Assembly: GCA_963805645.1 (NCBI GenBank)
Contig: CAWDVA010000008.1
Location: forward strand, 41,748 to 105,747
Direction of reading: 5' to 3'
Length of the DNA: 64,000 nt
Source of the DNA: an uncultured Chloroflexia bacterium
GTDB lineage: Bacteria; Chloroflexota; Limnocylindria; QHBO01
Position 1 is the first letter of the stretch, and each line of letters starts with the position of its first letter. The notes beneath the pieces were generated by a model, which saw only the letters and a program-made list of their open reading frames with translations, was not told the DNA's origin and searched no databases. A program made the position numbers and the translations under genes. Positions 15,259 through 32,754 of this stretch are shown one piece after another.

Positions 15259-15999
15259 TCAGGGTCGCCGCCGGATCCAGCGCGCCGGTGCCGCGACGGT
15301 GTGCACCATGGAGCGGAAGCCGGAGTTGTGGCGGACGTTGACCAGGTACCGCCACTGGCGCCGCCGGTCGACGCGCGTGATCTCGGTCGTCGGCTCGGCG
15401 CTCACGCCGAAGCGGGCCGCCAGGTTGCGGACCGTGTCCTGCCAGAAGCGGTTGTTGACCCGGTGGCCGCCGAAGACGAGGCCGAGTTCGAAGATCGGGT
15501 CGCTCGCGCGCTCCAGGGCCTGCGCCTGGGCCACGATCACGCCATCCGCGTCGCGGAAGGCGCTGAAGGTGATCCACGCCGAGAGCATGTGGCCTTCCGG
15601 GGTCATCAGGGTGAAGGCGTCGGGGTCGGCGAAGACCACCATGACCCCGGTGTGGAGCTTGACCGGTCCTGCCGCGCTCACCGACAGCAGCGCGACCTCG
15701 CCGGGCCGGATGCCCGCGAGCGGTGCGTAGAACGTGTTGCCCTTTGGCCAGAACGAGGGGAATTCGGCCTTCCAGGTGGCGATCACCGCCTGGGGGGTCA
15801 GGTCAGGATCGGCACCGGCCAGGCGGATCCGAAAGGTCTTCTGCCACATCTGGCCAAAGCCCTGGAGCGGGCCGGAGAGGCGCCGACCCCGGACCGTGCC
15901 GGCCAGGGCCCCGCTCGGAACGTCGGCGACCTGCAGCCGCTCTGTCGGCTGCGCCCAGGCGTCCGTGTCGGTGCGCTGCGGCGATTCGGCGGCGTTCAT
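15259..15999 (-). CDS. conserved hypothetical protein (paralog of 24280-24966)
   Basis: 246 aa. Shares blocks with ORF 24280..24966: RRLSGP(L/I)QGFG..WQKT(F/Y)R..L, F.LMTPEGH, DPI(F/Y)ELG. Family not recognised with confidence (possibly DUF1990-like). Confidence 0.7.
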   Translation of the reverse strand: MNAAESPQRTDTDAWAQPTERLQVADVPSGALAGTVRGRRLSGPLQGFGQMWQKTFRIRLAGADPDLTPQAVIATWKAEFPSFWPKGNTFYAPLAGIRPGEVALLSVSAAGPVKLHTGVMVVFADPDAFTLMTPEGHMLSAWITFSAFRDADGVIVAQAQALERASDPIFELGLVFGGHRVNNRFWQDTVRNLAARFGVSAEPTTEITRVDRRRQWRYLVNVRHNSGFRSMVHTVAAPARWIRRRP

Positions 16000-16014: not shown

Positions 16015-16350
16015 CTATGCCGGGACCGCGGCCAGCGCGTCGGCCTCGGACTCGACGATGCCGATCGCCTCGTCGAGCCGCGTCAGCGAGAGGATCTGGC
16101 GGTAGTGATCGGACAGCCCGTAGGCCAGCATTCGCTGTCCCTGGCGCTGCGCGCGGACCAGGAGGGTGACGAGCAGGCCGATGCCGGTGCTGTTCATGTA
16201 CTCCAGTGGCGAGAAGTTCAGGACGATGGCCCGTGTCTGCGGGCCGGAGGCCTGCTGGTAGGCCTCCATCAGGGCAGCCTCGGTGGCGCCCGTCAGCTCC
16301 CCGTCGATGTCGATGACGCTCGTGCGCTCGCCCCCGCTTCGGACCTGCAT
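16015..16350 (-). CDS. STAS-domain anti-sigma-factor antagonist
   Basis: 111 aa. VIDIDGELTG...LNFSPLEYMNSTGIGLLV...GLSDHYRQILSLTRL is a typical SpoIIAA/RsbV fold sequence with a Ser in the phosphorylatable MNSTG position. Confidence 0.85.
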   Translation of the reverse strand: MQVRSGGERTSVIDIDGELTGATEAALMEAYQQASGPQTRAIVLNFSPLEYMNSTGIGLLVTLLVRAQRQGQRMLAYGLSDHYRQILSLTRLDEAIGIVESEADALAAVPA

Positions 16351-16392: not shown

Positions 16393-16728
16393 TCAGGCGA
16401 CCGCGCTCGACTCGTCCGCGTGGATCGACAGGAAGTCGGCCAGGCGCGTGATCTCGAAGATCTGCCGGTAGTGCTCCGAGAGCCCGAAGGCGTGGACCGG
16501 CAGCTTCTCGCTGCGGGCCCGCGCCAGGAGCTCCACGACCAGGGCGATCCCGGTGCTGTTCATGTAGGTCAGGCCGGCGAAGTTGAGGATCACGCGATCG
16601 GTGTCTCCGGTTGCCTCGGCATAGGCGGCCTGCAGGGCATCGGCGGCCCCGCCGTCGAGCTCGCCGCTGATGTCGATGACGCCCGCCCCGTCGTGGCGAC
16701 GGGCGGTCGCCGCGAAGCGCTCAGTCAT
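16393..16728 (-). CDS. STAS-domain anti-sigma-factor antagonist (second copy)
   Basis: 111 aa paralog of 16015..16350 (LNFAGLTYMNSTGIALVV...GLSEHYRQIFEITRL). Overlaps the upstream gene by 8 nt. Confidence 0.85.
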   Translation of the reverse strand: MTERFAATARRHDGAGVIDISGELDGGAADALQAAYAEATGDTDRVILNFAGLTYMNSTGIALVVELLARARSEKLPVHAFGLSEHYRQIFEITRLADFLSIHADESSAVA

Positions 16729-18334
16729 GGTTCTCCTCCAGGTGCATCACCAGCTCGACGGTCTGCCCGTCGGCGTCGGGGGTGACGTGCATGGCATCCA
16801 CGAGGCTCTGGATCAGGAACAGGCCCCAGCCGCGCGGCGGCTGCTCCCCGCGGAGCTTCGCGGCGATGTCCGGCGTCTCGGTGATGGGGATGGGATGCTC
16901 TCCGTGGTCCCGGATCTCCACGACCAGGTCGCGGTCGCGGCGCAGGACCCGGACGTCGACCGGGATCACCGGGTCGTTGTGGTTTCCGTGCTCGATGGCG
17001 TTCATGGCCGTCTCGGCGACCGCGGTCTTGAGCTTCTCGAGGCGCTCGCCGGCGAGCCCCGCTGGCGCCGCCGCGTCCGCCACGCGGCGCATCACCTCGC
17101 GCTCGTTGCCGGCCTCGGACGGCACCTGGAACTCGGCGAGCACGCCGGCGGAGGCTGCGTCCGGCGAGGTGTCGGTCGCGGTTCCGGACGCGTCGCCCTC
17201 CCACCGCAGCGCGACCAGGGTGATGTCGTCCTCCTGCTCCCAGCCCGGCCCGGTGAACCGCTCGAGCTCCGCCAGGACGCGGGCGATCACGCCGCCGCGA
17301 CCCTCGCGGGGCTGGGCCACCAGGTCGCCGAGGCGGGGGATGCCGAACATCTCGCGGTCAGGGGCGTGCGCCTCGGCGATGCCGTCCGAGTGGAGGAGGA
17401 CCACCTGGCCGCGAGCAAGCTGCGCGGTCGTTTCGTCGTACGCCATGCCGGGCATGAGGCCCAGCGGCATCCCGGTCGCGCGGAGTTCGGTGGCGCCGTC
17501 ATCGGTCCGCACGAAGGGAAGGTTGTGACCGGCATTCGCGAAGCGGAGCGCTCCCGTGCGTGGGTCCAGGACGCCGTACAGGCAGGTGACGAACATGCGC
17601 GAGGGGATGTCGCCGTGGAGGAGATCGTTGACCCGGGCGAGCACGGCACCGGGATCGCCCAGCTCCTCGCCCGCGGCGCGGAGCAGGGACCGGGTGGCAG
17701 CCATCACCATGGCGGCCGGGACGCCCTTGTCGGTCACGTCGCCGACGGTGAAGGCAATGGTCCCGTCCGGCCGCTCCAGGACGTCGTAGAAGTCGCCGCC
17801 CACCGCGCGCGCCGGGCGATAGAAGGCCTCGATGCTCCAACCAGCAGGCTGCGGCAGCTCGACCGGGAGGAAGTGCTGCTGGATCAGCTGCGCGACGGCG
17901 AGCTCCTGCTCCATGCGCTGGCGCTCGCGCGCCTCCGCTTCCTGCTCCCGGACCAGCTGCGCCACGCGAAGCGCGGGTGCGGCCTGTCCGGCCAGGTTGT
18001 CGAGGAGGCGCCGATCGTCGGAGGAGTATTCCTGCTCGGAGCGACGCGGACCCAGGTTCAGGGTGCCGATCAGCTCGCCGGAGCTCACGAGCGGAACGAC
18101 CAGCTTGACCCCCGCGTCGCGGAGCTCGCGCACGGCGGTCGAATCCAGGGTCAGGGTGTCGAGATCTACCGGGCCGTTCGCGGCCTGGAGATAGGCCAGC
18201 AGCGGATCGTTCTCGGTGATCTCGACGGCCGGCGTCTCGGCCAGGGTCTCGACCGAAGCTTGGGGTAGCTCGGCTTCCGCGCGTCGGTTGCCGCGTCGCA
18301 CGACGCGTCGCAGGGCCTGGGTGAAGGTCGTCAT
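16721..18334 (-). CDS. fused partial-GAF / PP2C (SpoIIE-type) phosphatase / HATPase_c anti-sigma Ser-kinase-like protein
   Basis: ORF 16721..18367 trimmed to ATG 18334 (GGAG lies 8 nt upstream). PP2C blocks: GGDFYDV...VGDVTDKGVPAAM...FANAGHN...HSDGI...DDITL. C-terminal RsbW-like block: ETAMNAIEHGN...VEIRDHGE...GWGLFLI. Confidence 0.85.
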   Translation of the reverse strand: MTTFTQALRRVVRRGNRRAEAELPQASVETLAETPAVEITENDPLLAYLQAANGPVDLDTLTLDSTAVRELRDAGVKLVVPLVSSGELIGTLNLGPRRSEQEYSSDDRRLLDNLAGQAAPALRVAQLVREQEAEARERQRMEQELAVAQLIQQHFLPVELPQPAGWSIEAFYRPARAVGGDFYDVLERPDGTIAFTVGDVTDKGVPAAMVMAATRSLLRAAGEELGDPGAVLARVNDLLHGDIPSRMFVTCLYGVLDPRTGALRFANAGHNLPFVRTDDGATELRATGMPLGLMPGMAYDETTAQLARGQVVLLHSDGIAEAHAPDREMFGIPRLGDLVAQPREGRGGVIARVLAELERFTGPGWEQEDDITLVALRWEGDASGTATDTSPDAASAGVLAEFQVPSEAGNEREVMRRVADAAAPAGLAGERLEKLKTAVAETAMNAIEHGNHNDPVIPVDVRVLRRDRDLVVEIRDHGEHPIPITETPDIAAKLRGEQPPRGWGLFLIQSLVDAMHVTPDADGQTVELVMHLEENHD

Positions 18335-18386: not shown

Positions 18387-18848
18387 CTAGGTCCGGGGAA
18401 GATCCGTGGTCGGTCCCAGTTCGCCGCCCTCCATCATCCGCTTGAGATTCGCCAGGCCGCGCTCCCACCCGCGTTCGTACGGGCCCACGAAGAGAGGACC
18501 GATGAGCCGCATAAGCCCGCGGAGGCGGAAGGTCGAGTCAACGTCGACCCGCGTGCCTTCCCCGATCGGCTCCAAGGTGAGCGTGATGTCGAACGGCGCG
18601 CTGGGTGAGAGCCCGCGCATGCCGGCCAGCCGCGGCGGCTCGTAGGCCGTGACGACCGCGTCATTCTCGCTCGCGCGTCCCAGGAACATCACGCGGGCAC
18701 GGCGAACCGAGCCCATGCCATGCGGCGGCGGGGTGGTCCACCACTCCTCCACCTGGGCCGGGTACCAGCGCCCGGTGAGGGTGACGTCAGTCAGGACGGA
18801 GAAGACATCCTCGATGGGCCGCCGGATCTCGGCGGTGTGGCGCGTCAT
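18387..18848 (-). CDS. SRPBCC-family (polyketide cyclase/START-like) protein
   Basis: ORF 18387..19085 trimmed to MTRHTAEIRRPIEDVFSVLTDVTLTGRWYP. The upstream extension is Pro/Arg-rich junk. Confidence 0.75.
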   Translation of the reverse strand: MTRHTAEIRRPIEDVFSVLTDVTLTGRWYPAQVEEWWTTPPPHGMGSVRRARVMFLGRASENDAVVTAYEPPRLAGMRGLSPSAPFDITLTLEPIGEGTRVDVDSTFRLRGLMRLIGPLFVGPYERGWERGLANLKRMMEGGELGPTTDLPRT

Positions 18849-18906
18849 GAGCGCGCTGCACCGGCCGGCGATATGACACCGGGCCGGAGGTCGGCGGGGA
18901 TCATGG

Positions 18907-19314
18907 TTACCGGGACGGTGCGGCCGCCGACCGAGCCGGCGACCGGTCGAAGGCTGCGGCGCTCCACAGAATTGTGAACAGGAGCTGGACGGCCACAATG
19001 CCCAGCAGCCGCGCATCGCCCAGGCCGGATGCCATGGCGAGAACCGTGACAACGGTGCCGGCGGCCCAGGCCACGGCGTTGCCAATCACGATTCCCCGCC
19101 ACGCGCCGCCATCGGTCACCCCTCGGGCGAACCAGTTGAGCGCGGCATAGCCGATGTAGGAGGCGCAGGCAAGCCGGACGAGCGCCACGCCCGTCGGATC
19201 GAGGGTGAGGCCGACGACGCCGGCCATGGCGGCGGGGGCGATGAGGCCTGCGCCGCCGGAGAGGAGGGAGAAGATCGCGGCGATGGTGGCCAGCCGGTGG
19301 GGTGACATGCGCAC
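18907..19314 (-). CDS. small 4-TM membrane protein, unknown function
   Basis: 135 aa with four hydrophobic helices and coding-like composition. Promoter-like element copy 2 lies upstream. Confidence 0.55.
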   Translation of the reverse strand: MRMSPHRLATIAAIFSLLSGGAGLIAPAAMAGVVGLTLDPTGVALVRLACASYIGYAALNWFARGVTDGGAWRGIVIGNAVAWAAGTVVTVLAMASGLGDARLLGIVAVQLLFTILWSAAAFDRSPARSAAAPSR

Positions 19315-19369: not shown

Positions 19370-19402
19370 AGGGTCGCGGGCGAGCCGTTCGCGAAGCGTT
19401 AC
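19370..19402 (-). promoter_or_regulatory. promoter-like element copy 2: GTAACG-N5-CGAACG-N10-GACCCT, upstream of 18907-19314
   Basis: Read directly from the sequence. Overlaps the stop codon of family member A. Confidence 0.45.
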
Positions 19403-20595
19403 GAACCATCTTGTCGGATCGGTTCGTCACGGATGCGGAGCCAGACCCACGCCGTGGTGGGTCGCAGGGTGCCGGCCGCCGCGGCGAGCAGCTCGGCCTC
19501 GACGGCGTGGAGATCCAGGCGGTCCCGGAGCCGTGCCCCGAAGCCGTCGGCGACCAGCGCCAGGTCGTAGCGATTGCGGTCGAAGCGGCGGTCGACCCAG
19601 CGCTGGATCCGCGAGCGGGCCGGCCGGAGGAGCGTGGCGGCGGCGAGCGTTGTGGCCGCCACGGCATAGGTCCGGCCGCCCGTGACGCTGGCGAGCAGCT
19701 CGGAGAGGACGAGGATGCCGCCGACCTCGATGCCCAGCAGGAACGCCGAGAGCACGGCGTAGGTCAGCGTGCGCTTGATGACGAGGTCGATGTCATAGAG
19801 GCGGTAGCGGGTAATGGCGATCGCAAGGGAGATCGGCAGGGGGAGCATCCCCAGTGCCCAGGCGACATCGGCCAGCACGCCGCCCGGGATGACGTTCGAG
19901 ACGGTGATTCCGGCGAGCATTGCCACCATCCCGAACAGGATCCACTTCAGCTGCTGGCGCTCGGCGCCCCGCGACCGCCGGAAGCGCACCGCCAGGGCCA
20001 CGGCCCCGGCGCCGAACAGGATCACGTAAATGAAGAAGCCGGCCTGGACGACGTCGTAGAGGGGCTTGAGGGCGGGCACGAAGATCGGGTTCGCGCCGTC
20101 GATCCCGCCCTGGCCCGCGCCGCCGCCGGGATCACCGAGAGCGAAGATCACGATCACGACCAGCAGGGTGATCCCGACCGCGACGTAGACGCGGTTCCAC
20201 GCCGGGGTCAGGGGCCGGCCGGTCGGGACGACGAAGGCCAGCAGCACCGGGCAGGACAGCGCGAGGATCCATGTCCACGACAGGGCGGCACCAATCTGCG
20301 GGAAAGGGACGGCGAGGGTGTGGTCGAACCCGGCAATTGCGTATCGTTCCACCGCGAAGGATCCGACCATGGCCAGGCAGAGCAGGCCCAGGAGCCATCC
20401 CACGCTGTTGCCGCGCTCGCGCGCGGCGATCAGGCCGCCCGCGATCCCGTAGGACAGGAGCAGCGGGACCATGATCGGGTCGCTCGGGTTTCCCGCTCGG
20501 GGATCGACGGCCTCCAGCCATAGGCCGGCGGCGCCCAGCACGGCGGCGACCGCGAGCGGCATCCAGGGAAGAGCTCCCCGCAGCACCCGGCTCAT
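19399..20595 (-). CDS. sensor-like polytopic membrane protein, family member A (no output domain)
   Basis: C-terminal 398 aa of ORF 19399..21576, from MSRVLRGALPW. About 10 TM helices. Motifs: NSVGW, PTGRPLTPAWNR, RFRRSRGAERQQLKW, ITRYRLYDID, VDRRFDRNRYD...VWLR. ATGA overlap with member B at 20592-20595. Confidence 0.8.
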   Translation of the reverse strand: MSRVLRGALPWMPLAVAAVLGAAGLWLEAVDPRAGNPSDPIMVPLLLSYGIAGGLIAARERGNSVGWLLGLLCLAMVGSFAVERYAIAGFDHTLAVPFPQIGAALSWTWILALSCPVLLAFVVPTGRPLTPAWNRVYVAVGITLLVVIVIFALGDPGGGAGQGGIDGANPIFVPALKPLYDVVQAGFFIYVILFGAGAVALAVRFRRSRGAERQQLKWILFGMVAMLAGITVSNVIPGGVLADVAWALGMLPLPISLAIAITRYRLYDIDLVIKRTLTYAVLSAFLLGIEVGGILVLSELLASVTGGRTYAVAATTLAAATLLRPARSRIQRWVDRRFDRNRYDLALVADGFGARLRDRLDLHAVEAELLAAAAGTLRPTTAWVWLRIRDEPIRQDGS

Positions 20596-21773
20596 GCGTC
20601 GCGGATCCAGACACCGATGAACGCCGGATGCATGGCACGGTCCACCGATCCGCGCAGGTCGTCCACGACGGCGTCGAGCTCCACCTCGTCGCGCAGCCGC
20701 GTGGAGAACGCATCTGCGATCCGCTGCGCATCGTATCGGCTCCGATAGAACCGCCGGTCGACGGCGGCCTGGACGCGTCGCCGGATCGGCCCGAAGAGGG
20801 CCGCCACCAGCAGGGTGGAGCCAGCGACGGCGAGCTCGGTCGTCCGGACGATGCTCGCGAGGAGGGCCTGCAGGGCGAGGACCGAACCGACGTAGACCGC
20901 CGCAAGCACGATCGTCAGCGCCGCGTAGACCAGCGCCCGGTTGATGAGGTGGTCGATGTCGAAGAGCCGATGGCGCACGATCGCGATGCCGATCGCCACC
21001 GGAATGCCCAGCAGCGCGACCGCGAGGAGCGTGGCCCCCACGGTCTGGTCGTGGACCTCGCTCGCGAGGAGCAGGTAGAGGACGAAGGTGGCGGCCGCGA
21101 CGCTCGCCGCCAGGGCGAGCCACTTGAGCTGCTGACGCTCGAGGCCGCGTGCGCGGCGGAAGCGGACGATCACCGCGGCGCTGGCGAGGGCCAGGCCGGC
21201 AACCAGCAGCATGACGCCGACCACCGCCATCGCTGCCACGATCCCCGGGGTATCGGGCGGGACCAGTCCTTCGGGTCGAGGGAGCGTTGCCCGACGCCAG
21301 AAGCCCAGCGCGAGCCCCACGGTTCCACTCAGGACTCCCGCGGCGACGATCGTGGCCCATGGCCGCCAGCGCGGTGACGGGAGCCGGCCGGTCGGGAAGA
21401 CGAGAAGCGGGAACGCTCCCACCGCGGCCATGGTCGGAACCCAGATCCACGACTCGAGCCACGCGCCCACCCATGCCGCGGGCACGGCGCCCGGTGCCGC
21501 GAGCAATCCATAGACAGCGTAGTAGTGCCCGGCGAACTGGAGGGCGGAGAGCAGGGCCCCGGCGATCATCAACCATCCGATCGGGTTCTCCGGGCGACGC
21601 CGGGCGATGGGCAGCCCCGACAGCGTGAAGACCACGGCGGCCACGCCCTGGAAGCCGGGAAATCCCCAGTCCGCGGCGCGGAGCGGCAGCGGCCAGCTCG
21701 CGATCACGAGGACGATGCCTGCGAGCAGCGCCAGGGTCTCGAGGGACAGGCTCGAGATGAGGATGGCGCTCAT
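20592..21773 (-). CDS. sensor-like polytopic membrane protein, family member B
   Basis: 393 aa. Motifs: NPIGW, FPTGRLPSPRWRP, RFRRARGLERQQLKW, IVRHRLFDID, VDRRFYRSRYD...VWIR. ATGA overlaps at both ends. Confidence 0.85.
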   Translation of the reverse strand: MSAILISSLSLETLALLAGIVLVIASWPLPLRAADWGFPGFQGVAAVVFTLSGLPIARRRPENPIGWLMIAGALLSALQFAGHYYAVYGLLAAPGAVPAAWVGAWLESWIWVPTMAAVGAFPLLVFPTGRLPSPRWRPWATIVAAGVLSGTVGLALGFWRRATLPRPEGLVPPDTPGIVAAMAVVGVMLLVAGLALASAAVIVRFRRARGLERQQLKWLALAASVAAATFVLYLLLASEVHDQTVGATLLAVALLGIPVAIGIAIVRHRLFDIDHLINRALVYAALTIVLAAVYVGSVLALQALLASIVRTTELAVAGSTLLVAALFGPIRRRVQAAVDRRFYRSRYDAQRIADAFSTRLRDEVELDAVVDDLRGSVDRAMHPAFIGVWIRDA

Positions 21774-22969
21774 TGCCGGCCGCTCGCCCTGTGCCGCACC
21801 CAGACGCTCACCGTGGCCGGCAGGAGGGCGGCGCGCGCGGTGGCCGCCAGCTCGTCCACGACGTCGTCAAGGTCCAGCCGGTCCCGCAGTCGGGTGCCGA
21901 AGCCGTCGGCGATCCGCGCCGCGTCGTACCGGCTGCGGTCGAAGCGGCGGTCGACCCAGCCCTGGATTCGGCGCCGGGCCGGCTGGAAGAGCGCCGCAAC
22001 CCCCAGGGTCGTGGCCGCGACGGCGTAGGTCTGCTCCCGGGTGATGCTCGACAGCACCGTCTGGAGGAGAAGGACGCCCCCGATCTCCACGCCCACCAGC
22101 ACGATCGTCAGGACGCCGTAGCTGATCGTGCGCTTGATGACCAGGTCGATGTCCAGGAGCCGATGGCGCAGGATGGCGATGCCGATGGCGAACGGCGTCG
22201 CGGCGACGCACAGGAGCCCGCCGACCCAGGTGACGTCGCTGAGGAACCCGGTGGTCACGAAGTTCGAGAAGCCGATGCCCACGATGCCCAGCGTCGCGGG
22301 ATACGCGAACCAGCGGAGCTGCAGCCGCTCCAGCGGTGTCCCGTGGCGGTAGCGCACGACCACCGCGGCCGCGGTCAGAAGGAACAGGGCAAGGCCGCTC
22401 ACCGCATCGATGGTGCCCGTGATCTCGAGCAACGGGTGCGGCAGCCGAATGGCGAGCGGGTTGTCGACGGCGACGTTCTGCATTGGGCCGGGCGTGAAGG
22501 CGGAGCCGAGAGTGACCAAGGTGATGGCAATCCCGGCGAAGACGCCCACCGGCCGCCAGCGCGGCGAGGGGAGGCGGCCATTCGGGAAGAAGAGCGGAAC
22601 GATGATCACCAGCCCGATCAGGCTTGGGATCATCAGCCAGTTGTCGACCCAGGCGACCGGGACCGTCAATGGGAGCCCCAGATCGTATCGGTCCTGGCTG
22701 AGCGAGAGGTAGTCGAACGCTGCGCTCTGGGCCGCCAGTCCCACGGAGCAGCCCAGCAGGATCCAGCCCACCAGGTTTCGCGATTGGCGTTGGACGATGA
22801 GGCCACCCACCACGCTGATGCCGAGCACCGCCAGTGCGGTCACAAGCAGGAACAGCGCATCCCCGAGCACGAATGCCCGGCCGTTGACCAGGCCGAGGGT
22901 AACCGCGAGGGCGAGCAGCGCGACGTTCGCGGCGATCACGGCCCGTGAGAGGATCACCTCGCGCCTCAT
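21770..22969 (-). CDS. sensor-like polytopic membrane protein, family member C
   Basis: 399 aa. Motifs: [54 protein letters not shown]...VWVR. ATGA overlaps at both ends. Confidence 0.85.
   Translation of the reverse strand: MRREVILSRAVIAANVALLALAVTLGLVNGRAFVLGDALFLLVTALAVLGISVVGGLIVQRQSRNLVGWILLGCSVGLAAQSAAFDYLSLSQDRYDLGLPLTVPVAWVDNWLMIPSLIGLVIIVPLFFPNGRLPSPRWRPVGVFAGIAITLVTLGSAFTPGPMQNVAVDNPLAIRLPHPLLEITGTIDAVSGLALFLLTAAAVVVRYRHGTPLERLQLRWFAYPATLGIVGIGFSNFVTTGFLSDVTWVGGLLCVAATPFAIGIAILRHRLLDIDLVIKRTISYGVLTIVLVGVEIGGVLLLQTVLSSITREQTYAVAATTLGVAALFQPARRRIQGWVDRRFDRSRYDAARIADGFGTRLRDRLDLDDVVDELAATARAALLPATVSVWVRHRASGRQ
21845..22189 (-). repeat. about 345-bp high-identity segment shared with 23035-23379 (3' parts of members C and D)
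   Basis: The encoded 115 aa differ at about 10 positions. Identical nucleotide runs exceed 50 bp, for example CGACAGCACCGTCTGGAGGAGAAGGACGCCCCCGATCTCCACGCCCACCAGCA. Confidence 0.75.
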
Positions 22970-24198
22970 TGTCCTGCCCTCGCCTTGAGCCAGACCCGGG
23001 TGGACGTCGGGCGAAGGGCCGCCGCCGTCGTCGTGGCCAGCTCGCCCACGACCTCGTCGAGGTCAAGGCGGTCGCGTAGCCGGCTGCCGAACCCGTCGAC
23101 GATCCGCGCCGCGTCATAGTGGCTGCGGTCGAAGCGCCGGTCGACCCAGCCCTGGATCCGCCGCCGGGCAGGCTGGAAGAGCGCCGCCACGCCCAGGGTG
23201 GTCGCGGCCACGGCATAGGTCTGCTCCTGGGTGACGCTCGACAGCACCGTCTGGAGGAGAAGGACGCCCCCGATCTCCACGCCCACCAGCAGGACGGTGA
23301 GGACCCCGTAGCTGATGGTGCGCTTGATGACCAGGTCGATGTCGAGGAGCCGATGGCGCAGGATGGCGATGCCGGCCGCGACAGGGAGCAGGGGGGCGAC
23401 CAGGAGGGTCAACAGGACGGTCGGGGAGCCCGCCTGTCCGAGGTACAGGAACGGGCTCGAGGCGATGAGGCCGATCTCGATGGTGCCGGCGAAGGTGAAC
23501 CACTTGAGCTGCTGCCGCTCGAGCCCGCGGGAGCGGCGGAAACGGACGACGAGGCCAACCACGGAGGCGAGCGCTGTCACGCTGGCCAGGAGCAGCCCGG
23601 CCGTCTCCACCCCCACCGCGACGTGCAGAGCCGGAATGTCGGGCGGCCCGGCGCCGGCGTTGGCCGCGGCCAGGGCGGCGCCCCGCAGAGGCCAGGTCGC
23701 GACCGCCATGGGGACGACCATGAGCGCCAGCGCCAGCCAGGCGAGCCATGCCACCGGTCGCCATCGGGGCGTGGGCGGATGGCCGCTCGGGAAGAGCAGG
23801 ACCGAGAGGCTGAGGAGCAGGACGTAGCCGGGCATCCAGGCCCAGACGCCCACCCATGAGGCCTCCGCGGCCAACGGAAGCGGCGTGGTCCCCGGGCCGT
23901 ACGATGCAAAGCCGTAGGCCTGCGTGAGCTGCGCCAGCGCCTGCGAGATTCCGATGGCAAGGAAGATCCAGCCGATGGCGTTCGCCGGACGTCGCGAGGC
24001 GATCACCCAGCCCACGATCGGGAACGTGGCGCCCAGCGCATAGCCCCCCAGCGTGTTGCCGTCCAGCGGCGGGATCGGGGCGCGGCCCGCCATGGTGATC
24101 GGCAGCGCTATCGCCCCGGCCTCGATGAGGAGACCCAATCCCGCCAGGAGGTGTGCCAGGCGGCGGCTGTGAAGATGGTCGCTGGTCTGCTCGGTCAT
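22966..24198 (-). CDS. sensor-like polytopic membrane protein, family member D
   Basis: 410 aa. Motifs: [54 protein letters not shown]...VWLK. GGAG lies 7 nt upstream of the ATG. Confidence 0.85.
   Translation of the reverse strand: MTEQTSDHLHSRRLAHLLAGLGLLIEAGAIALPITMAGRAPIPPLDGNTLGGYALGATFPIVGWVIASRRPANAIGWIFLAIGISQALAQLTQAYGFASYGPGTTPLPLAAEASWVGVWAWMPGYVLLLSLSVLLFPSGHPPTPRWRPVAWLAWLALALMVVPMAVATWPLRGAALAAANAGAGPPDIPALHVAVGVETAGLLLASVTALASVVGLVVRFRRSRGLERQQLKWFTFAGTIEIGLIASSPFLYLGQAGSPTVLLTLLVAPLLPVAAGIAILRHRLLDIDLVIKRTISYGVLTVLLVGVEIGGVLLLQTVLSSVTQEQTYAVAATTLGVAALFQPARRRIQGWVDRRFDRSHYDAARIVDGFGSRLRDRLDLDEVVGELATTTAAALRPTSTRVWLKARAGQ
23035..23379 (-). repeat. about 345-bp high-identity segment shared with 21845-22189
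   Basis: See the partner entry. The N-terminal two-thirds of C and D are highly diverged. Confidence 0.75.
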
Positions 24199-24279
24199 TG
24201 GCTCCGGCGCGGACGCGGGAGGGCGGGAATGGGATGCGGGGACGTCATCGTCGCGGAACGTCGGCGGAAGGGTACGCGA

Positions 24280-24966
24280 TCACCGGTCGCCCCGGAAGGC
24301 CGCGCGCACGCGGCGGGCCGGTGCGGCAAGGGTGTACAGGGTGGTGCGGATGATGGCGTTGCGCCACACGTTGCGTGCCTCGCGCCATTGGAGCCGGGCG
24401 TCGACGCGGACCTTGTCGAGCTCCACCGGCGCGGAGACTGCGAGCCGCTCCGCGAGCGAGGCCAGCACGTGGCGCCAGATAGCCTCCTGGGCCCGGGAGC
24501 CCCCCATCAGCCGGAAGCCCAGCTCGTAGATCGGGTCGTTGGCGCGCGCAAGCGACTGGATCTGGGCGATCGTGTCGTCGCCGGAGCGATGGGCGGTGAA
24601 GGTCACCATGCCCGACTCCGGGTGCCCCTCCGGCGTCATCAGGGTGAATGCCTCGTCATCGGCGTAGAGGACCAGGACACCGGTGGAGATGGGCATGCCC
24701 GACACGCGCGCGTTGATGAGGACCACCTCGCCGGGCGCCACGCCTGCGACGGAGGGGAAGAAGCGGTTCTGTGCCGGCTGGAGCTCCGGCAGGTGGGCCT
24801 TGAAGGTCGCCACCACCTCGGCGGGCGTCGCTGCCGACCCAAGATTCACCCGATACGTCTTCTGCCACAGGCTGCCGAACCCCTGGATGGGGCCGGAGAG
24901 GCGTCGGCCGGCGACGTTCAGGCTCCGGGCGCCGCCGGGATGGCTGGCGACGTCGATGCGGGTCAC
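24280..24966 (-). CDS. conserved hypothetical protein (paralog of 15259-15999)
   Basis: 228 aa, with the same conserved blocks as 15259..15999. Lies 81 nt upstream of member D on the same strand. Confidence 0.7.
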   Translation of the reverse strand: MTRIDVASHPGGARSLNVAGRRLSGPIQGFGSLWQKTYRVNLGSAATPAEVVATFKAHLPELQPAQNRFFPSVAGVAPGEVVLINARVSGMPISTGVLVLYADDEAFTLMTPEGHPESGMVTFTAHRSGDDTIAQIQSLARANDPIYELGFRLMGGSRAQEAIWRHVLASLAERLAVSAPVELDKVRVDARLQWREARNVWRNAIIRTTLYTLAAPARRVRAAFRGDR

Positions 24967-25079
24967 GGGCGCAGCCCAGGCCGAGGCATCGGTTCGGATC
25001 GTGGATGATGGGGCCGACCTTTGTCGGCGGGCTTCTGCGCTGGTTCCATCAGCGGGGTCCTCTGCTGCGTTGCCTTCGC

Positions 25080-25111
25080 ATGATCCGCGTCGGGCGTTCG
25101 CGAATCGTTAC
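25080..25111 (-). promoter_or_regulatory. promoter-like element copy 3: GTAACG-N5-CGAACG-N9-GATCAT, upstream of 24280-24966 and members D-A
   Basis: Read directly from the sequence, in the 214-bp gap between 25181 and 24966. Confidence 0.5.
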
Positions 25112-25180
25112 CGGGAACGGCGGACCCGGCGGTGCCGTGTGGGCCCCGCCGGGTCGTGTCGGGAGGACGGGATGCGATCG

Positions 25181-25588
25181 CTACTCGCCGCCGCAGATCT
25201 GGGGGTAGAGGGCGCAGATGCTGGTGACTCCCCTGTCGGCCGGTCCGTTGACCTGCGCCTGTACGGGGATCTCGTGGCCGGTGGGGCCAACACCGTCCCA
25301 GGTGCTCACGTCGGGCGTAAGGTCACCGTCGAAATCGAGGCCGATGAGGCCGTGGAATCCCTCGCCCGTCTCCGGGTTGATCACGCCCTGCTTGATCCGC
25401 TGCATGACGCCTCTGGTCGCCCATTCGACCTCTCCCGTCTGGGTGTTGATCACCACCTGCACGCCGGATGACACCGGCTTGCTCGCGTTGGTGCAATCGG
25501 TCGCCAGCGCCGTGGTGACAAGGGCCAGGCTTGCGCCCAGGCCGAGGCCAATGCCGGCGAGGCGGCGCGCACGTCGCGGGATGTTCAC
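25181..25588 (-). CDS. small secreted protein, unknown function
   Basis: 135 aa with a GTG start preceded by AAGGAGGGA. Signal peptide RRARRLAGIGLGLGASLALVTTALA. The mature part has 3 Cys (TDCT..., SICALYPQIC). Confidence 0.65.
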   Translation of the reverse strand: MNIPRRARRLAGIGLGLGASLALVTTALATDCTNASKPVSSGVQVVINTQTGEVEWATRGVMQRIKQGVINPETGEGFHGLIGLDFDGDLTPDVSTWDGVGPTGHEIPVQAQVNGPADRGVTSICALYPQICGGE

Positions 25589-25643
25589 GATGCTCCCTCC
25601 TTACGGGTGCATTCCGATGCTTGGGCGCTCGGATCTCGCGGCC

Positions 25644-25675
25644 AGTCTCCGCGAGGCGCGTCCGCGGATCGTTAC
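25644..25675 (-). promoter_or_regulatory. promoter-like element copy 4: GTAACG-N5-CGGACG-N9-GAGACT, upstream of secreted-protein gene 25181-25588
   Basis: Read directly from the sequence, about 55 nt upstream of the GTG start. Confidence 0.5.
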
Positions 25676-25748
25676 GGGACCCTTGGCACTCCCGAATCGG
25701 CGAGAACGGGGTATCCGCCCGGCTCGTGGCCGCGCTGGCGAGCCGCCC

Positions 25749-26956
25749 TCAGCCGGGTTCGGGTCCCTGGCCGGTTCGCACCCAGACCGACACCGAGGTC
25801 GGCTGGAAGGCGGAGTCCGTGGTGTGACCAGCTCCCCGCGGACGCCGTCAAGGTCGACGTGGTCGCGGAGGCGAGCGGCGAGCTCCTCGCTCAGTCGCGC
25901 GGCGTCGTAGCGCGAGCGGTCGAAGCGGCGGTCGACCGCCGCCTGCACCCGCTCCGCAGCGGTCCGAAGAGGGCGGCAACGGCCAGCGTCGAGACGGCCA
26001 CCGCCACCTGCGAGCTCCCGGTGATCGGCCGGGCCAGGGCCTGGAGGCCAAGGACGAGCCGGCAAAGGTGGCGCCCAGGATGAGGGTGAGGATCGCGTAG
26101 GCCAGGGTGCGGCTGATGATCCGGTCGATGTCGTACAGCCGGTAGCGCAGGATGGCGATCCCGATGGCGATGGGAATGACGATAAAGACGAGGGATGCGG
26201 CCGCCTGCAGGGCTCCAGCCAGGCGGGTGTGGCATCGCCCTGCATCGATCCGGTGGCCAGGCTGGCGAGCTGGGTCAGCAGGTACACCGACGCCACGACG
26301 CCGGCGGCGGCGGTCACCCACTTGAGCTGCTGTCGCTCCGCGCCCTGGGAGCGTCGGAAGCGCACCACCAGGCCCGCGGCTGAGAGCACGATCACCACCG
26401 GATGAGCGTCAACGCCGCGAGCGCCGCGTTCAGCACGCCCGCGAGGGCCTCGACGCCCAGGGGCTTGGGTACTCCCGGGTACCCAAGCTCGGTGAGGTCC
26501 CCCGGCGTCAGGAGCAGGATGAGCACCGCGCCCAGGAGCGTCGCGCCCACCAGCCAGTCGACCCACCGCCATCGGGGCGTCGGCAGCCTTCCAGCAGGGA
26601 AGGAGGAGCAGGAACCGACCATGGTCACGACTGCGGCACCCACATCACGCCATGGAGCACGATGGCCAGCGCGCCGCCCGGGAGGTCGCGGGACAGCGCA
26701 GAGGACCCGTAGGCTCCCAGGGGCTCCGCGGTCAGCAGCCCAATGGTCATCAGGATCCAGCCGATGGGGTTGCGAGGCCGTCGGATGACTAGGAGCCCGC
26801 CCACGCTGGCGTACGAAGCCACCCACAGCAACCCGTAGCCGCTGGGGAGGGCAATCGGTATCGCAGCTAGCGTGCCAACCACGACTGCGACGCTGGCGGC
26901 CACGCCAAGCCGGCCGCTCCGCAGTCGGCGCCCGCCGCTGCCTGTCCGCCGCTCAC
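25749..26956 (-). pseudogene. decayed copy (E) of the sensor-like membrane protein family, >=6 frameshifts
   Basis: Family motifs are scattered over all three minus-strand reading frames (track ORFs 26625.., 26392.., 25601.., 25848.., 25891..). They include [77 protein letters not shown], and the tail TDSAFQPTSVSVWVR (my translation). A GTGA overlap with copy F is preserved. Confidence 0.75.
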
Positions 26957-28174
26957 TCTCGCTCCTCCGGCGCGCGCACCCAGACCGAGACCGAGGGCGG
27001 GCGCAGGGCGGCGTGGGCGCTGCTGGCCAGCTCGGCCGACACGGCGTGGAGCTCGAGCCGGCGCGAAGCCGGGCGCCGAAGCCGTCGGCCACCCGGGCCG
27101 CGTCGTAGCGCGAGCGGTCGAAGCGCCGGTCGACGAGCGCCTGCACCCGGCGCCGGATCGGGCCGAACAGGGCCGCCACCAGCAGGGTCGAGACGGCCAC
27201 CGACACCTGGGACTCGGCGGTGACCGGGCGCAGCATGCGCCTGCAGCCCGAGCACCGCTCCGGCGAAGACCCCGGCCAGGATGGCGGTGAGGATCGGCGT
27301 AGGCCAGGGTTCGGTTGATGATCCGGTCGATCTCGTACAGGCGGTAGCGCAGGACCGCGATGCCGACGGCCACGGGGACTATTGGGTAGGTGAGGACGGC
27401 CGGGAACCACATCCACGTTCCGTTGGGGTCGACGAAGGCGATCATCGCGAAGGCGAAGATGAACGTGCCGAGCACGCCGGCGAGCGCGAACAGCAGCCAC
27501 TTGTACTGCTGGCGCTCGGCGTCGTGGGCGCGCCGGAACCGCAGCGGGAAGGTGCCGAGCGTGACGGCGAGGCCAACCAGGAAGACGACGTAGATGCCCT
27601 CGGTGAAGAGCGGCCAGCCCACCCACTCGCGGCCGATGCCGATGGGATTGGTCACCCGTGCGGAGGTGCCGTCCGCGAAGGAGATCCCAAACGATGGGGC
27701 GAACGCCTGCGCCACGGTGAACAAGGCCGGAACGGCGATGGCCAGGCGATTGGCCACTCCCATCCGCCTGGGTGAAAGGCGCCCGGACGGAAAGACTGCG
27801 GCGAGGGCGATCAACCCCATGAAGAAGAGTCCGGCTCCCCAGCCGTTCCCCCACGCCTGGAGCGTGACCTGCAGGTTCGCCTGGCCGTCCACCACCTGTG
27901 AGGCGCTTCCCGGCGGGCTCGACCCGACGATGACGAAGGTCAGGCCGATGCCAAGGACCAGCCAGCCGATGGGCTGGCGCGGCAGGCGTGCCACCAGGCC
28001 GATGCCGCCGAGCGCGAACGCCCAGAAGACGACCGCCCCGCCCCAGTTGGTGATGGTGAAGAACACCCCGAACGCGATGGCAAGCAGGGCGACCGGCAGG
28101 AGCAGACGGGCCGCCATGGGCAGGGAGTCTCGCGCGGTCTGCTGCGCCGGTCGCGGTTGCGTTGCCTGCGCCAC
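26953..28174 (-). pseudogene. decayed copy (F) of the sensor-like membrane protein family, 3 frameshifts
   Basis: ORF 26867..28174 is family-like up to ...[20 protein letters not shown]. The protein then continues in a second frame ([19 protein letters not shown]), a third ([58 protein letters not shown]) and back to the second ([11 protein letters not shown]...[13 protein letters not shown]). Each switch fits a 1-nt indel. Confidence 0.75.
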
Positions 28175-28244
28175 GGTGCTCGGTAACCTCCGTGCGGTTG
28201 GACGATCGGCTCCGCCCGAGGGTGGAAACCGTCCGCAGATGGGC

Positions 28245-28327: not shown

Positions 28328-31193
28328 GTGAGCCGCCTCCGTCTCGCACTCCTTGGTCCGCCGCGCGTCGAGCTGGACACCGCGCCTGTCTCGTTCGACA
28401 CCCGCAAGGCTCTTGCGCTGCTCGCCGTTCTCGCCGTTCGCGGCGAGGCCCAGTCGCGCGACGCCCTGACGGCTCTGCTCTGGCCGGAGCATGACGCCGC
28501 CCACGCCGGCGGTGCGCTGCGCCGGACCCTCTCCGTGACCCGGGCCGGGATCGGCCCCGATGCCCTGCGGCTCGACGGTCGGTCCGTCGAGCTTGCCCCT
28601 TCGGGCCGCGTCGACGTGTGGCGGCTGCACGCCATCACGGATGGGGTCACACGGCACCATCCCGACGCCGATCCGGTCTGCGACCGCTGCCTGCGCCGGC
28701 TCGCCGAGATCCCGAACCTCGTCCGGGGCCGTTTCCTGGAGGGGTTCGGCCTCCGGGACAGCCCGGAGTTCGACGACTGGTCCGCGGGCACCGCGCAAGC
28801 GCTCGATCGCGAGGTGGCCGATGCGCTCGACCGCCTGTCGGACGCGCTCGCCGCGCGCGGTCGTACCAACCTCGCCCTCGACGCCGCGCGTCGGCGCCTC
28901 GCCATGGACCCGCTGCATGAGGAAGCGCACCGGCGCCTGATGCGCCTTCACTCGGAGGCAGGGGACAGGACCGGCGCCATCGCCCGCTACCGGGAGTGCG
29001 TTCGGATCCTGGACCAGGAGCTCGGCGTCGCGCCCATGCCGGAGACGACGGAGCTGTACCACGCGATCGCCGCCGGGCCGGCGGCGGCGCACCACGTGGA
29101 TGAGCCTGCGGAGTCCACCGCACCCCCGGTTGGGATCTCGGCCCTGCCCCTGATCGGACGTCGGGCGGACCTCGAGGTCGTGCTGGGGGCCTGGCGCCGG
29201 GCCGGTCAGGCGGGTCGCCTCGTCCTGCTCGAAGGCGAGCCGGGGATCGGGAAGACGCGCGTGCTCGAGGAGGTCTCGGCGGCAGTGCGGGCCGCCGGTG
29301 CGCAGGTGCTCTCCCTGGTTGCCCACGATGGCGAGCAGGCGATCGCCTATGCGCCCATCGTCGGTGCGCTCGAGAAGGCCATCCCCGACGCGGAGGGTGG
29401 CGGCGAGGGCGCCGGCTGGCTGCCGGGCCTCCCCGGCTGGGTTCGCGGCGAGCTGGCGCGCGTGGTGCCGGCCGTGGCCGGGGTCGGATCGGCGGTCGCC
29501 GCCATCGAGGGTCCCGGAGCGGAGATCCGCTTCATGGAGGGCCTGTCCCGGGCCCTCCTGGCCGCGGTGTCGGGGCCGCGGGCCGGGCTCATCTGCGTCG
29601 ATGACGTGCAGTGGGCGGATTCCGCGACGATCGCGATCCTCGGCTACGTGGCGCGGCGGGTCACGGAGGTACGGTGCTGCGTCGTCCTGGCCCGGCGACC
29701 TCCCGAGCCGGACCAGGATCCGCTTGCCGATCTTCTGCGCAGCGCGCGTCGGCGGGGCTCGCTCCTGGAGGTGCGCCCGGCGCGCCTGACGCGGGCGGAG
29801 GTGTCCCAGCTGGCCCGTGCGGTCGATACCCCGCTGGACGCGGACCGGCTGTACGCCGAGACCGAGGGGATCCCGTTCTTCGTTGCCGAGTACCTGGCGG
29901 CAGCGCGCGAACCCGGCACGGACGGCGCCGGCGGGGAGGCCACGCCGCGGCCCATCCGGGAGCTGCTGGCCGGGCGCATCGACGGTCTCAGCGCGGTCGC
30001 ACGCCAGGTCCTGGTTGCCGCGGCGGTCGTGGGTCGTTCGTTCGACGTGGAGCTGGTCCGCGCGACGAGCGGGCGCTCACCCGAGGAGACCGCGACCGGT
30101 GTCGAGGAGCTCCTGGCGCGCGGCCTGATCGTCGAGGCGGCGGGTACGGACGGAGCGCCGCGCTATGACTTCGATCACGCCAAGAGCCGGGAGGTCGCAT
30201 ACGCATCGGCCAGCCTCGCGCGCCGGCGGCTGCTGCATCGGCGGGCCGCGCTCGCACTCCAGCAGCCGGCAACCCGGCGCACCGGGGGCCACGCCTTGGC
30301 AGCCACCATTGCGCGCCATCTCCGCGAGGCGGGTGATGATCGCGGGGCCGCCCGCTACCTGCGCATCGCGGGGGACGAGGCCGCCGCGGTGTACGCGCAC
30401 GAGGAAGCGCTCGACCTGTATCGCTCAGCCATCGCACTCGACCCGGCCTCCCCCGGGCCGCTCCACGAACGCATCGGCACCGAATGGACCCGCCTTGGGC
30501 GCTATGACGACGCCGTGGCCGCCTACGAGGCTGCGGCGGCCGCGGCCGACCCGCGCGACGCCTGGCGCATCGAGCGGCGCCTCGCCGAGGTCCACGGTCG
30601 TCGCGGCGAATGGTCGCTGGCCGAATCGCACCTCGCGGCGGCCCTCACGGGCGTCGCCCCGGACGCGCTCGGCGACCGCGCCCGCCTCACCGCCGACCGG
30701 GCCCTGGCGGTCCATCGGCTCGGTGATCATCGGCGCAGCAGGCGCCTGGCGGGCGAAGCGCTCGAGACCGCGCAGGCGGCGCGGGATCCCGCCTGCGTCG
30801 CGCAGGCTCACAATCTGCTGGGGATCCTCGCCCGTGACGCCGGCCACCTCGTACAGGCACGCCGCCACCTGGAGGAGAGCCTGGCCCTGGCCAGCGCTGA
30901 GCACGTCGAGGAGGCGCGCATCGCGTCGCTCAACAACCTGGCGCTGCTGTCGGTTGCTGCCGGGGACCCCGCGCGGGCGGTCGAGACGGCGCGCGCGGCG
31001 CTCGATGCGGCGGTCACCATCGGCGATCGCCACCGGGAGGCCGCCATCCGCAATAACCTCGCCGATGCGCTGCACGCGGCGGGGCGACGGGACGAGGCGA
31101 TCGACGAGCTGAAGCAGGCGGTCACTGATCTTCGCGGAGGTCGGTCGGCCGGGCGGGATGGAGCCCGAGATCTGGAAGCTCGTCGACTGGTAG
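28328..31193 (+). CDS. AfsR/SARP-family regulator (OmpR-type wHTH + BTAD + NB-ARC/P-loop + TPR), frameshifted about 25 codons before its natural stop
   Basis: ORF 28328..31393. N-terminal [12 protein letters not shown]...[12 protein letters not shown]...ALLWPE is the wHTH. The BTAD block is [29 protein letters not shown]. The Walker A is [12 protein letters not shown]. Multiple TPR-like helices follow. After about 31120 the in-frame text becomes Arg/Cys-rich junk. The +1 frame reads [23 protein letters not shown] and stops at 31191-31193. Confidence 0.85.
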
Positions 31194-31231
31194 GCCTACG
31201 TGCGGTGCTCCGCTCGGCCCGACCCATCTTC

Positions 31232-31322
31232 CGACTCGTCAGATGCTGCTGCCACGAGCGCTACCCGGCCGATCCTGACCGTTTCTCCTTCTCGACTCGC
31301 CAGATGCTGCTGCCAGTAGCGC
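31232..31322. repeat. imperfect ~30-bp direct repeat (CGACTCG(T/C)CAGATGCTGCTGCCA..AGCGC) with 61-bp period in a 310-bp noncoding gap
   Basis: Read directly from the sequence, between the natural stop of the SARP gene (31193) and the zf-UBP gene end (31504). Confidence 0.6.
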
Positions 31323-31503
31323 AAGGCGCCTTCCGGCGAGGATCCGGGGCGTCGAATGCGGGAAACTGCGCTCGGCGTTGCCACCGGGAGTGACGAGATG
31401 CGCCGATGGAGGCGCCTTACGCTACGGTGACGAGCAGGTGACGAGTCCACCGTCGCCATCGGCCGATACCGGGCGTCATGCGCACGGGGGCACGCCGCGC
31501 GCT

Positions 31504-31779
31504 CTACGCCGGTTCCAGGTACACCTCGTCGATGAAGCACCAGATCCAGTCCTCGCCGGGCTCGATCGACTGCATGATCGGATGCCCGCTGGCTTCGGCG
31601 TGCTTACGTGCGTGGCGGTTGGGGGACTGGTCGCAGCAGCCGACGTGGCCGCACGTCCGGCAGATCCGGAGGTGCAGCCACGTGCCGCCGATCTTCAGGC
31701 AATCCTCGCAGCCCTCGGCGCTGGGCGTGACGTCACGCAGCATGTCGAGGTGCGAGCAGGGGAGCTCCTCGTCGGTCAT
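31504..31779 (-). CDS. UBP-type zinc-finger (zf-UBP) domain protein
   Basis: 91 aa. CSHL...CEDC...WLHLRICRTCGHVGCCDQSPNRHARKH...H has the Cys/His pattern of ZnF-UBP. ATGA overlap with the upstream protease gene. Confidence 0.8.
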   Translation of the reverse strand: MTDEELPCSHLDMLRDVTPSAEGCEDCLKIGGTWLHLRICRTCGHVGCCDQSPNRHARKHAEASGHPIMQSIEPGEDWIWCFIDEVYLEPA

Positions 31780-32660: not shown

Positions 32661-32708
32661 TGGTCGTCCTCCGTTGCATACCGCGGCAGCGCGTCGGGCT
32701 GCTAATGA

Positions 32709-32730
32709 CTAGTACGCTGCAAGTTACTAG
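32709..32730. promoter_or_regulatory. inverted repeat CTAGTA-N10-TACTAG in an AT-rich island (candidate HxlR operator)
   Basis: A perfect 6-bp inverted repeat in the divergent region between protease gene start 32660 and HxlR gene start 32755. It is the only AT-rich patch there. Confidence 0.4.
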
Positions 32731-32754
32731 CGAGGAAGGAAGAATGCAAGCCCC

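Follow-up and report, generated by a model that had tools for sequence, protein, structure and literature searches.

A tandem array of paralogous membrane proteins was analysed in a 64,000-nucleotide stretch of DNA from an uncultured Chloroflexia bacterium (assembly GCA_963805645.1, contig CAWDVA010000008.1, positions 41,748 to 105,747; the whole stretch is referred to as the window). The paralogs probably serve as alternative membrane inputs to one partner-switching phosphatase/kinase encoded in the same gene cluster, to which they would dock most likely by completing its GAF domain; this reading is given a probability of roughly 0.6. It draws on the homology of the array proteins to the sensor modules of histidine kinases, on a common truncation point, on conserved synteny and on relatives in which sensor and phosphatase are fused, all of which were observed.

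The window has a G+C content of approximately 71%. Four intact open reading frames (ORFs) of the array lie on its minus strand and were identified by ORF and alignment: copy A (19399-20595, 398 residues), which is the last gene of the array, copy B (20592-21773, 393 residues), copy C (21770-22969, 399 residues) and copy D (22966-24198, 410 residues), the first gene of the intact sub-array. These coordinates are exactly those given in an earlier note made on this DNA, and the 4-nt ATGA overlaps described there were confirmed at 22969-22966, 21773-21770 and 20595-20592. Identities of B, C and D with A range from 34 to 41%, and 80 columns are invariant in the alignment of the four. The motifs reported for the array were found in A-D, with two departures from the wording given in that note: the loop said to end in PRWRP reads VPTGRPLTPAWNR in A, and the mid-protein motif, which otherwise holds, reads VRYRHGTPLERLQLRW in C. 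On the whole the first reading of the array was borne out, while the nature of the tail as a GAF fragment and the conservation of the whole cluster had gone unseen.

The approximately 10 hydrophobic helices expected of these proteins agree with an AlphaFold2 (AF2) model of B (predicted local distance difference test score, pLDDT, 83.7), which predicts 10 transmembrane (TM) helices and a helical tail. In this model TM10 extends into the cytoplasm as a long helix, after which come a short helix and an end without defined structure. Searches of A-D against Pfam and NCBIfam gave no significant match, and neither library has a model covering the family. As the earlier note stated, no HisKA, HATPase, GGDEF or HD output domain was found in A-D by these searches; the HisKA/HisKA_3 phospho-acceptor and the HATPase_c domain that mark a kinase are both absent. 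The nearest Pfam model is HisKA_7TM (PF16927), to which A scored 23.1 bits, under the gathering cut-off of 28.6, and B-D gave no match; at E ≤0.01 it matched 7 of 70 family members, with a best value of 4.8e-6. The similarity is weak, and the family differs from HisKA_7TM by its approximately 10 helices and its own motifs. A transporter or enzyme assignment was looked for and none was obtained, as Pfam and NCBIfam returned sub-threshold noise only and a PDB sequence search was empty. Foldseek against PDB retrieved generic 7-TM bundles alone, with TM-scores of 0.3-0.5 and a best E of 0.038.

The family is very large and unnamed. A search with the family profile returned 43,686 clusters (50% identity) at E ≤1e-3 and 12,461 at E ≤1e-30; almost all of the 150 top matches listed were 385-440 residues long, and the source names for family proteins were all "hypothetical protein". 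Conservation was examined in an alignment of 277 copies, with the topology inferred from the model and the positive-inside rule. Mean entropy was 1.29 bits in the cytoplasmic loops, 1.53 bits in the tail and 1.54 bits in TM9-10, compared with 2.74 bits in the outer loops and 2.75 bits in TM1-8, a pattern as expected for variable inputs joined to a common transmitter. Within the terminal part of the tail, residues P383, W389 and R391 are 93-99% conserved.

The link drawn in the earlier note between motifs of this kind and the N-terminal membrane halves of HisKA_3-type kinases proved correct. Residues 42-388 of B aligned with residues 65-413, in the N-terminal part, of a GAF-HisKA_3-HATPase kinase of Deinococcus peraridilitoris (WP_015231682.1) with 35% identity and E 2e-46. 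Kinases of this type share with the window proteins the 10-TM module, the motifs NPIGW, FPxGRLPSxxWRP, ERxQxKW and RYRLYDID, and a common helix that runs into a GAF-like domain, the 35% identity extending over approximately 350 residues. With two-component histidine kinases the window proteins thus have one feature in common, a homologous N-terminal membrane sensor module. They differ in that they stop after the first helix and strand of GAF (alpha1-beta1), without HisKA_3 or HATPase, in that the tail reads VDRRFxRxRYD where the kinases have V.R.LYG.RD.PY, and in that their arrays stand beside a PP2C gene and not a response regulator gene.

Further kinases were found as well. The database protein P0123 consists of a family module followed by GAF-HisKA_3-HATPase, matches the family profile at E 2e-149 and combines, in one gene call, a copy of the stand-alone type with a kinase copy. 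A tblastn search against plasmids matched 6 records and brought up full-length kinases bearing the module; 3 matches lie in annotated histidine kinases and 3 in stretches without annotation, and none of these 6 records showed a stand-alone array. In Streptomyces sp. YIM 121038, two adjacent HisKA_3 kinases (WP_138957285.1 and WP_138957284.1) are present, the first of which was matched by B and the second of which has a weak HisKA_7TM match. Two family modules occur in single database proteins in P0239 (954 residues, with an additional N-terminal PDZ domain), P0041, P0100 and P0123, either by fusion or by merged gene calls. P0041 and P0100 were considered as long kinases and rejected, as each is two tandem copies read as one protein.

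The point at which the family proteins end is constant. In 256 near-full copies, taken from 80 loci (79 related loci and the window), the median distance from the end of the profile to the end of the ORF is 1 residue, and no ORF extends past the tail. With the homology to kinase N-termini, this bears out the earlier description of the proteins as kinase-less sensor modules, and the lack of a kinase is a fixed trait of the family and not a local truncation.

More than 514 loci were obtained when one genome per species was scanned, and the 79 related loci examined here were taken from these. Stand-alone tandem arrays, whose recurrence elsewhere had been posed as a question, were found in most of the 79, with 2-12 copies on the same strand. 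Their hosts are Chloroflexota, among which Limnocylindria-type metagenome-assembled genomes are nearest to the window, and Actinomycetota, including the cultured Kribbella steppae, Kribbella sp. VKM Ac-2569 and Nocardioides sp. GXQ0305. Arrays were also found in Solirubrobacterales and Rubrobacter, and one locus each was assigned to Acidobacteriota and Steroidobacteraceae. The arrays bounded on both sides (n = 26) contain 2-8 copies, with a median of 4. Identity between paralogs of one locus has a median of 45%, and the best match of 228 of the 277 copies lies in another genome; judged by these comparisons, the paralogs within a locus are old. For 22 of 49 last copies the best foreign match was another last copy (expected, 21%), and array position is partly conserved. 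Solitary copies, such as those in L017, L034, L037, L038, L048, L059, L060, L067 and L075, lie in unrelated neighbourhoods with Fic, LuxR-STAND, UvrA-like, PBP and luciferase-like genes and no PP2C gene nearby. Such copies may function in trans as orphan sensors; no partial-GAF effector other than PP2C was found among their scanned neighbours.

The cluster containing the array is conserved across several phyla. Its recurring order is a divergent AfsR/SARP-like gene, the array, a gene for a protein with partial GAF, PP2C and HATPase_c_2 domains (hereafter the switch protein), two STAS genes, a DUF1990-like gene and a flavin adenine dinucleotide (FAD) oxidoreductase gene. In the window the switch protein is encoded at 16721-18334 on the minus strand and consists, by Pfam, of an N-terminal peptide (MTTFTQALRR), a variable linker, the partial GAF, a SpoIIE/PP2C domain (169 bits) and an RsbW-like HATPase_c_2 domain (79.7 bits). 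Orthologs were present in 50 of the 79 related loci. The two STAS proteins are encoded downstream on the same strand, one at 16393-16728 (Pfam STAS, 55 bits; in 48 of the 79 loci) and the other at 16015-16350 (51 bits; synteny conserved). Both carry the sequence YMNSTG at the phospho-serine position, and the Ser/Thr site in NSTG, which is a predicted phosphorylation site, is retained in both.

The association of sensor and switch genes was seen from both directions. A PP2C ortholog lies directly downstream in 40 of the 61 arrays having at least 2.5 kb of downstream flank, the other 21 being mostly singletons, and often only -1 to 15 bp lie between the last copy and the point where the PP2C alignment begins. 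In the reverse test, with a PP2C profile, a family copy was found within 7 kb in 20 of 22 full-length PP2C-HATPase orthologs, and in 13 of these 20 it ends less than 150 bp upstream. The PP2C-HATPase orthologs whose neighbourhoods were scanned include those of Ktedonobacter racemifer and Blastococcus saxobsidens.

The start of the switch protein was set at ATG 18334, as in the database protein P0267 (537 residues); the mechanical ORF begins at TTG 18367. The ATG start yields the N-terminal peptide MTTFTQALRRVVRR, conserved in orthologs and followed by a linker of variable length. The GAF match of this protein covers only Pfam profile positions of approximately 44-133, the first 44 or so being missing. 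In its AF2 model, the partial GAF consists of a short strand and one hairpin between helices, and a long helix runs from GAF to PP2C.

The missing part is located by six single-chain relatives (L103, L104, L105, L106, L139 and L158), in which membrane module, tail, GAF and PP2C stand in one ORF. They lack the HATPase domain, and their membrane module comprises at least the C-terminal half of the family module. Their PP2C domains share 47-56% identity with that of the window in four cases and 37-39% in L139 and L158. In 4 of the 6, Pfam GAF (PF01590) matches from end to end (positions 1-133), starting at the tail motif DLxxL, e.g. DLETLSNELLSVVSQTVAPTGVSVWV, and ending in a segment homologous to the N-terminal domain of the window PP2C protein. 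Because the GAF domain of these fusions spans the region from the tail motif through the PP2C-homologous segment, the GAF domain is split between sensor and phosphatase: by homology, the stand-alone sensors stop after GAF alpha1-beta1 and the phosphatase starts with the remainder. BLAST placed the two parts almost end to end, A ending at residue 420 and the window PP2C starting at 424 in L105, and D ending at 302 and PP2C starting at 304 in L106. The same order holds in the Deinococcus kinase, where the tail of B falls on residues 355-413 and PP2C residues 89-149 on 435-494. By transfer from the fused relatives, the sensor tail corresponds approximately to GAF profile positions 1-30; the tail alone gave no GAF match, and the sensors of the window have no complete GAF fold within one chain. 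The idea in the earlier note that the conserved tail is a common interaction surface, together with its pointer to the neighbouring PP2C and STAS proteins, turned out to be the key, since PP2C is conserved beside the arrays and, in the fusions, a single GAF domain bridges tail and PP2C.

On these grounds the following is proposed for docking by GAF complementation, for the direction in which the signal travels and for the output. Each gene of the array would encode the membrane-bound sensing half of a receptor of the histidine kinase type, itself devoid of enzymatic output, in which the variable TM1-8 and outer loops form the input side, and the conserved cytoplasmic face, TM9-10 and signalling helix form the transmitter. 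The sensors, probably as dimers, would dock the switch protein, most likely completing its GAF domain in trans, and the state of the sensor would pass along the long helix between GAF and PP2C and, in the manner of partner switching, set the balance of phosphatase and kinase activities on the two STAS proteins. A single switch would then receive alternative inputs from 1-12 diverged paralogs, which converge on it or compete for it; these may work as independent sensors or as a hetero-oligomer, both of which the earlier note had considered. Candidates for the output are the AfsR-like regulator and the DUF1990 and FAD-oxidoreductase genes. Coiled-coil linkers are known to relay signals to PPM phosphatases and histidine kinases from sensor domains that can be exchanged, among them GAF (PMC12143880). 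GAF complementation is the most economical reading because of the fission point and the near-invariant P383, W389 and R391. Its most novel form is a plug and socket, in which up to a dozen membrane sensors, interchangeable with one another, bear the first helix and strand, one soluble switch bears the rest of a GAF domain divided over two polypeptides, and whichever sensor completes the domain controls the PP2C/RsbW-type switch; this is put forward tentatively, with the odds somewhat against it.

Several observations speak against the proposal that the paralogs feed one switch by completing its GAF domain. In an AF2 chimera of the tail of A with PP2C, the tail had a pLDDT of 28-58 and its last strand was unpaired; this test is weak because the tail alignment held 4 sequences and no paired homologs. 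Hand-made chimeras of the tail with the PP2C N-terminus also did not lengthen the Pfam GAF match, which says little because Pfam misses this part in intact kinases too. In the window itself, the PP2C gene lies approximately 1 kb downstream of copy A, past two small inserted genes, and elsewhere many solitary copies are far from any PP2C gene and have unrelated neighbours. The cluster has the PP2C/SpoIIE, HATPase_c_2 and Ser/Thr-bearing STAS components of partner switching and lacks a target output gene; neither a sigma factor nor a clear output gene was found in the cluster or the ten flanking genes scanned.

A rival proposal is a control of the PP2C switch by the sensors that does not involve GAF completion, docking being achieved by the conserved, arginine-rich cytoplasmic loops and the conserved PP2C N-terminal peptide (MTTxTxxxRRxxxR); the tail would then be a mere dimerisation or signalling helix left from domain fission. 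This is the most serious alternative and is nonetheless considered doubtful. The unpaired tail strand in the AF2 chimera is in line with it, as is the modelling of the partial GAF alone at a pLDDT of 80-90. The N-terminal peptide is conserved in split systems, PP2C residues before approximately 27-63 are unmatched in the L105, L106 and L103 fusions, and conservation within the sensors is highest in the cytoplasmic loops. On the other hand, a vestigial strand would not readily account for the conservation of P383, W389 and R391, all 256 copies end at the same point, and the N-terminal peptide is predicted by AF2 to be disordered.

The modules could instead pair with full-length histidine kinases that have the same membrane domain and, in such mixed dimers, serve as decoys or modulators, the PP2C neighbourhood reflecting co-regulation only. 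Close relatives of the module do head GAF-HisKA_3 kinases, P0123 unites both types in one gene call, and TM9-10, the usual dimer interface, is conserved among the paralogs. This explanation is improbable all the same: the conserved cluster holds no such kinase, a C-terminal kinase on a family module was found in 0 of the 80 loci, the tail motifs of kinases and stand-alone copies differ as described above, and the relatives with the stand-alone type of tail are fused to PP2C and not to kinases.

Still less probable is that the paralogs assemble into a hetero-oligomeric membrane complex with a non-signalling role, such as a channel, transporter or envelope structure. Such a complex would accord with the translational coupling implied by the ATGA overlaps, with the partial positional orthology of last copies and with the age of the paralogs. 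Copy numbers of 1-12 (2-8 in bounded arrays) are unlike a fixed stoichiometry, however, and the proteins are homologous over their entire length to kinase sensor modules, with no transporter or enzyme family match and no solved structure at E <0.03. Finally, a fragmented or mis-assembled histidine kinase locus, or a pseudogene array, which could be suspected from the frameshifts in copies E and F (see below) and from the probable origin of the source as a long-read metagenome assembly, is excluded for practical purposes because stand-alone arrays recur and 0 of 256 copies have a C-terminal extension; the shared truncation point is found in many assemblies, including those of cultured Kribbella, Nocardioides, Blastococcus and Ktedonobacter, the 12,461 clusters are represented among their 150 top matches almost entirely by proteins of about 400 residues, and conservation is strong. 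For A-D this reading is already refuted.

The proposed pathway of paralogous sensors and one switch can be compared with known systems. Partner switches with a fused phosphatase and anti-sigma kinase are Rv1364c of Mycobacterium tuberculosis and OsaC of Streptomyces coelicolor, and Bacillus subtilis has the related RsbU/V/W proteins (named in PMC12143880). The cluster shares with them PP2C (SpoIIE), HATPase_c_2, STAS with a phosphorylatable Ser and a helical linker between sensor and PPM domains. It differs in that the inputs are separate membrane proteins, not fused PAS or GAF domains, in having two STAS genes and no sigma factor, and in its conserved AfsR-like, DUF1990-like and FAD-oxidoreductase partners. 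Single-chain TM-GAF-SpoIIE phosphatases, represented by the six fusions and by RsbU-type proteins generally, have the same membrane module, tail motif and GAF and a homologous PP2C; in comparison, the chain of the window system is cut inside GAF, its sensor part is multiplied 1-12 times, and its phosphatase has gained the HATPase_c_2 kinase domain and the N-terminal peptide.

Paralogous sensors converge on one downstream enzyme in the B. subtilis stressosome (RsbRA-RD paralogs, RsbS and RsbT, acting on RsbU) and in chemoreceptor arrays. The likeness is one of analogy only, and lies in the combination of variable input and conserved output parts that is also seen in the window sensors. Stressosome sensors have a STAS end and work with the RsbT kinase; A-D have no STAS domain and so do not belong to that class, they are integral membrane proteins without an RsbT-like adaptor, and their coupling is proposed to occur through a split domain. 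The STAS genes of the cluster encode small stand-alone proteins only.

No description of the family or the cluster was found in the literature searched, which included work on HisKA_7TM, DUF1990, split GAF domains and partner switching with membrane sensors. Membrane-sensor PP2Cs, GAF-regulated PPMs and PP2C-RsbW-STAS modules are already known kinds; what is new is that the cut falls inside GAF, that the sensor half has been multiplied to form arrays and that the cluster is conserved. In the usual account of bacterial signalling a single chain joins one sensor to one output; here the chain is cut inside a domain and its sensor half is multiplied. If the halves reassemble, this would be a natural split-domain docking that wires many inputs into one Ser/Thr phosphatase/kinase switch, and thus a membrane-based many-to-one integrator, present in thousands of soil Chloroflexota and Actinomycetota, that resembles a stressosome or chemoreceptor array in function but works through domain complementation. 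It would explain how the partner-switching pathways of these two phyla receive membrane signals, give tens of thousands of "hypothetical proteins" a function and offer a modular design for synthetic sensors. The cultured carriers in Kribbella, Nocardioides, Blastococcus and Ktedonobacter make the system directly accessible to testing.

The remaining genes of the cluster were located as follows. The AfsR/SARP-like regulator, with BTAD, AAA_16 and TPR domains by Pfam, is encoded upstream on the plus strand (28328-31393), is upstream and divergent in 45 of the 79 related loci, and may be the output of the system or regulate it. The DUF1990-like protein (15259-15999, minus strand; in 49 of the 79 loci) is 47% identical to a second DUF1990 protein (24280-24966, minus strand; Pfam), which is encoded between the two sub-arrays. 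The last cluster gene (13795-15231, minus strand; in 35 of the 79 loci) encodes an FAD-dependent oxidoreductase of the amine-oxidase-like type according to Pfam, which may be an output or a redox-sensing partner. PADLOC gave no relevant defence-system match for ten cluster proteins. The genes inserted at 18387-19314 and 25181-25588 encode an SRPBCC protein, a small 4-TM-like protein and a small secreted protein, the first two being those that separate copy A from PP2C. The SRPBCC and secreted proteins were found only in the closest relatives (L001-L003), and the small membrane protein had weak matches (32-38% identity) in L005, L055 and L061 as well. Adjoining the cluster at 31776-35525, and not conserved with it, are genes for an HtrA-like Trypsin_2-PDZ protease, an adenylate/guanylate cyclase and a VanY-type D-Ala-D-Ala carboxypeptidase.

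Two further copies, E (25749-26956) and F (26953-28174), exist on the minus strand as had been noted, each split over several reading frames, and their junction is GTGA, not ATGA. Copy F has an intact ortholog in L008, a relative 97.5% identical, from which it differs by 1-nt indels at 27294, 27238 and 27064. Copy E, which has profile matches in several frames, was compared with L008 and L001. Where the window has E and F (25600-28200), four intact upstream copies are present in L001 (134-5071) and L003 (129-5441), and four copies, two of them incomplete by profile, in L008 (3903-8841). Because these three relatives carry four copies opposite E and F, E looks like a recombinant remnant, the product of recombination and deletion involving two or more copies. 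Decay of E and F is more likely than sequencing error, since all other long genes of the window are intact, with an error of long-read assembly as the less likely alternative.

A 725-residue mechanical ORF at 19399-21576 was rejected as a gene, being copy A plus an upstream read-through across B in another frame; the window is rich in G+C, and many of its long antisense ORFs are equally spurious. In a comparison of C and D at the nucleotide level (similar part, 21770-22200 versus 22966-23400), the first two-thirds of the alignment showed 51-58% identity, whereas approximately 200 nt in the 3' third, one sixth of the alignment, showed 90% and the last sixth 77%. This indicates a recent gene conversion between C and D, limited to the conserved transmitter part.

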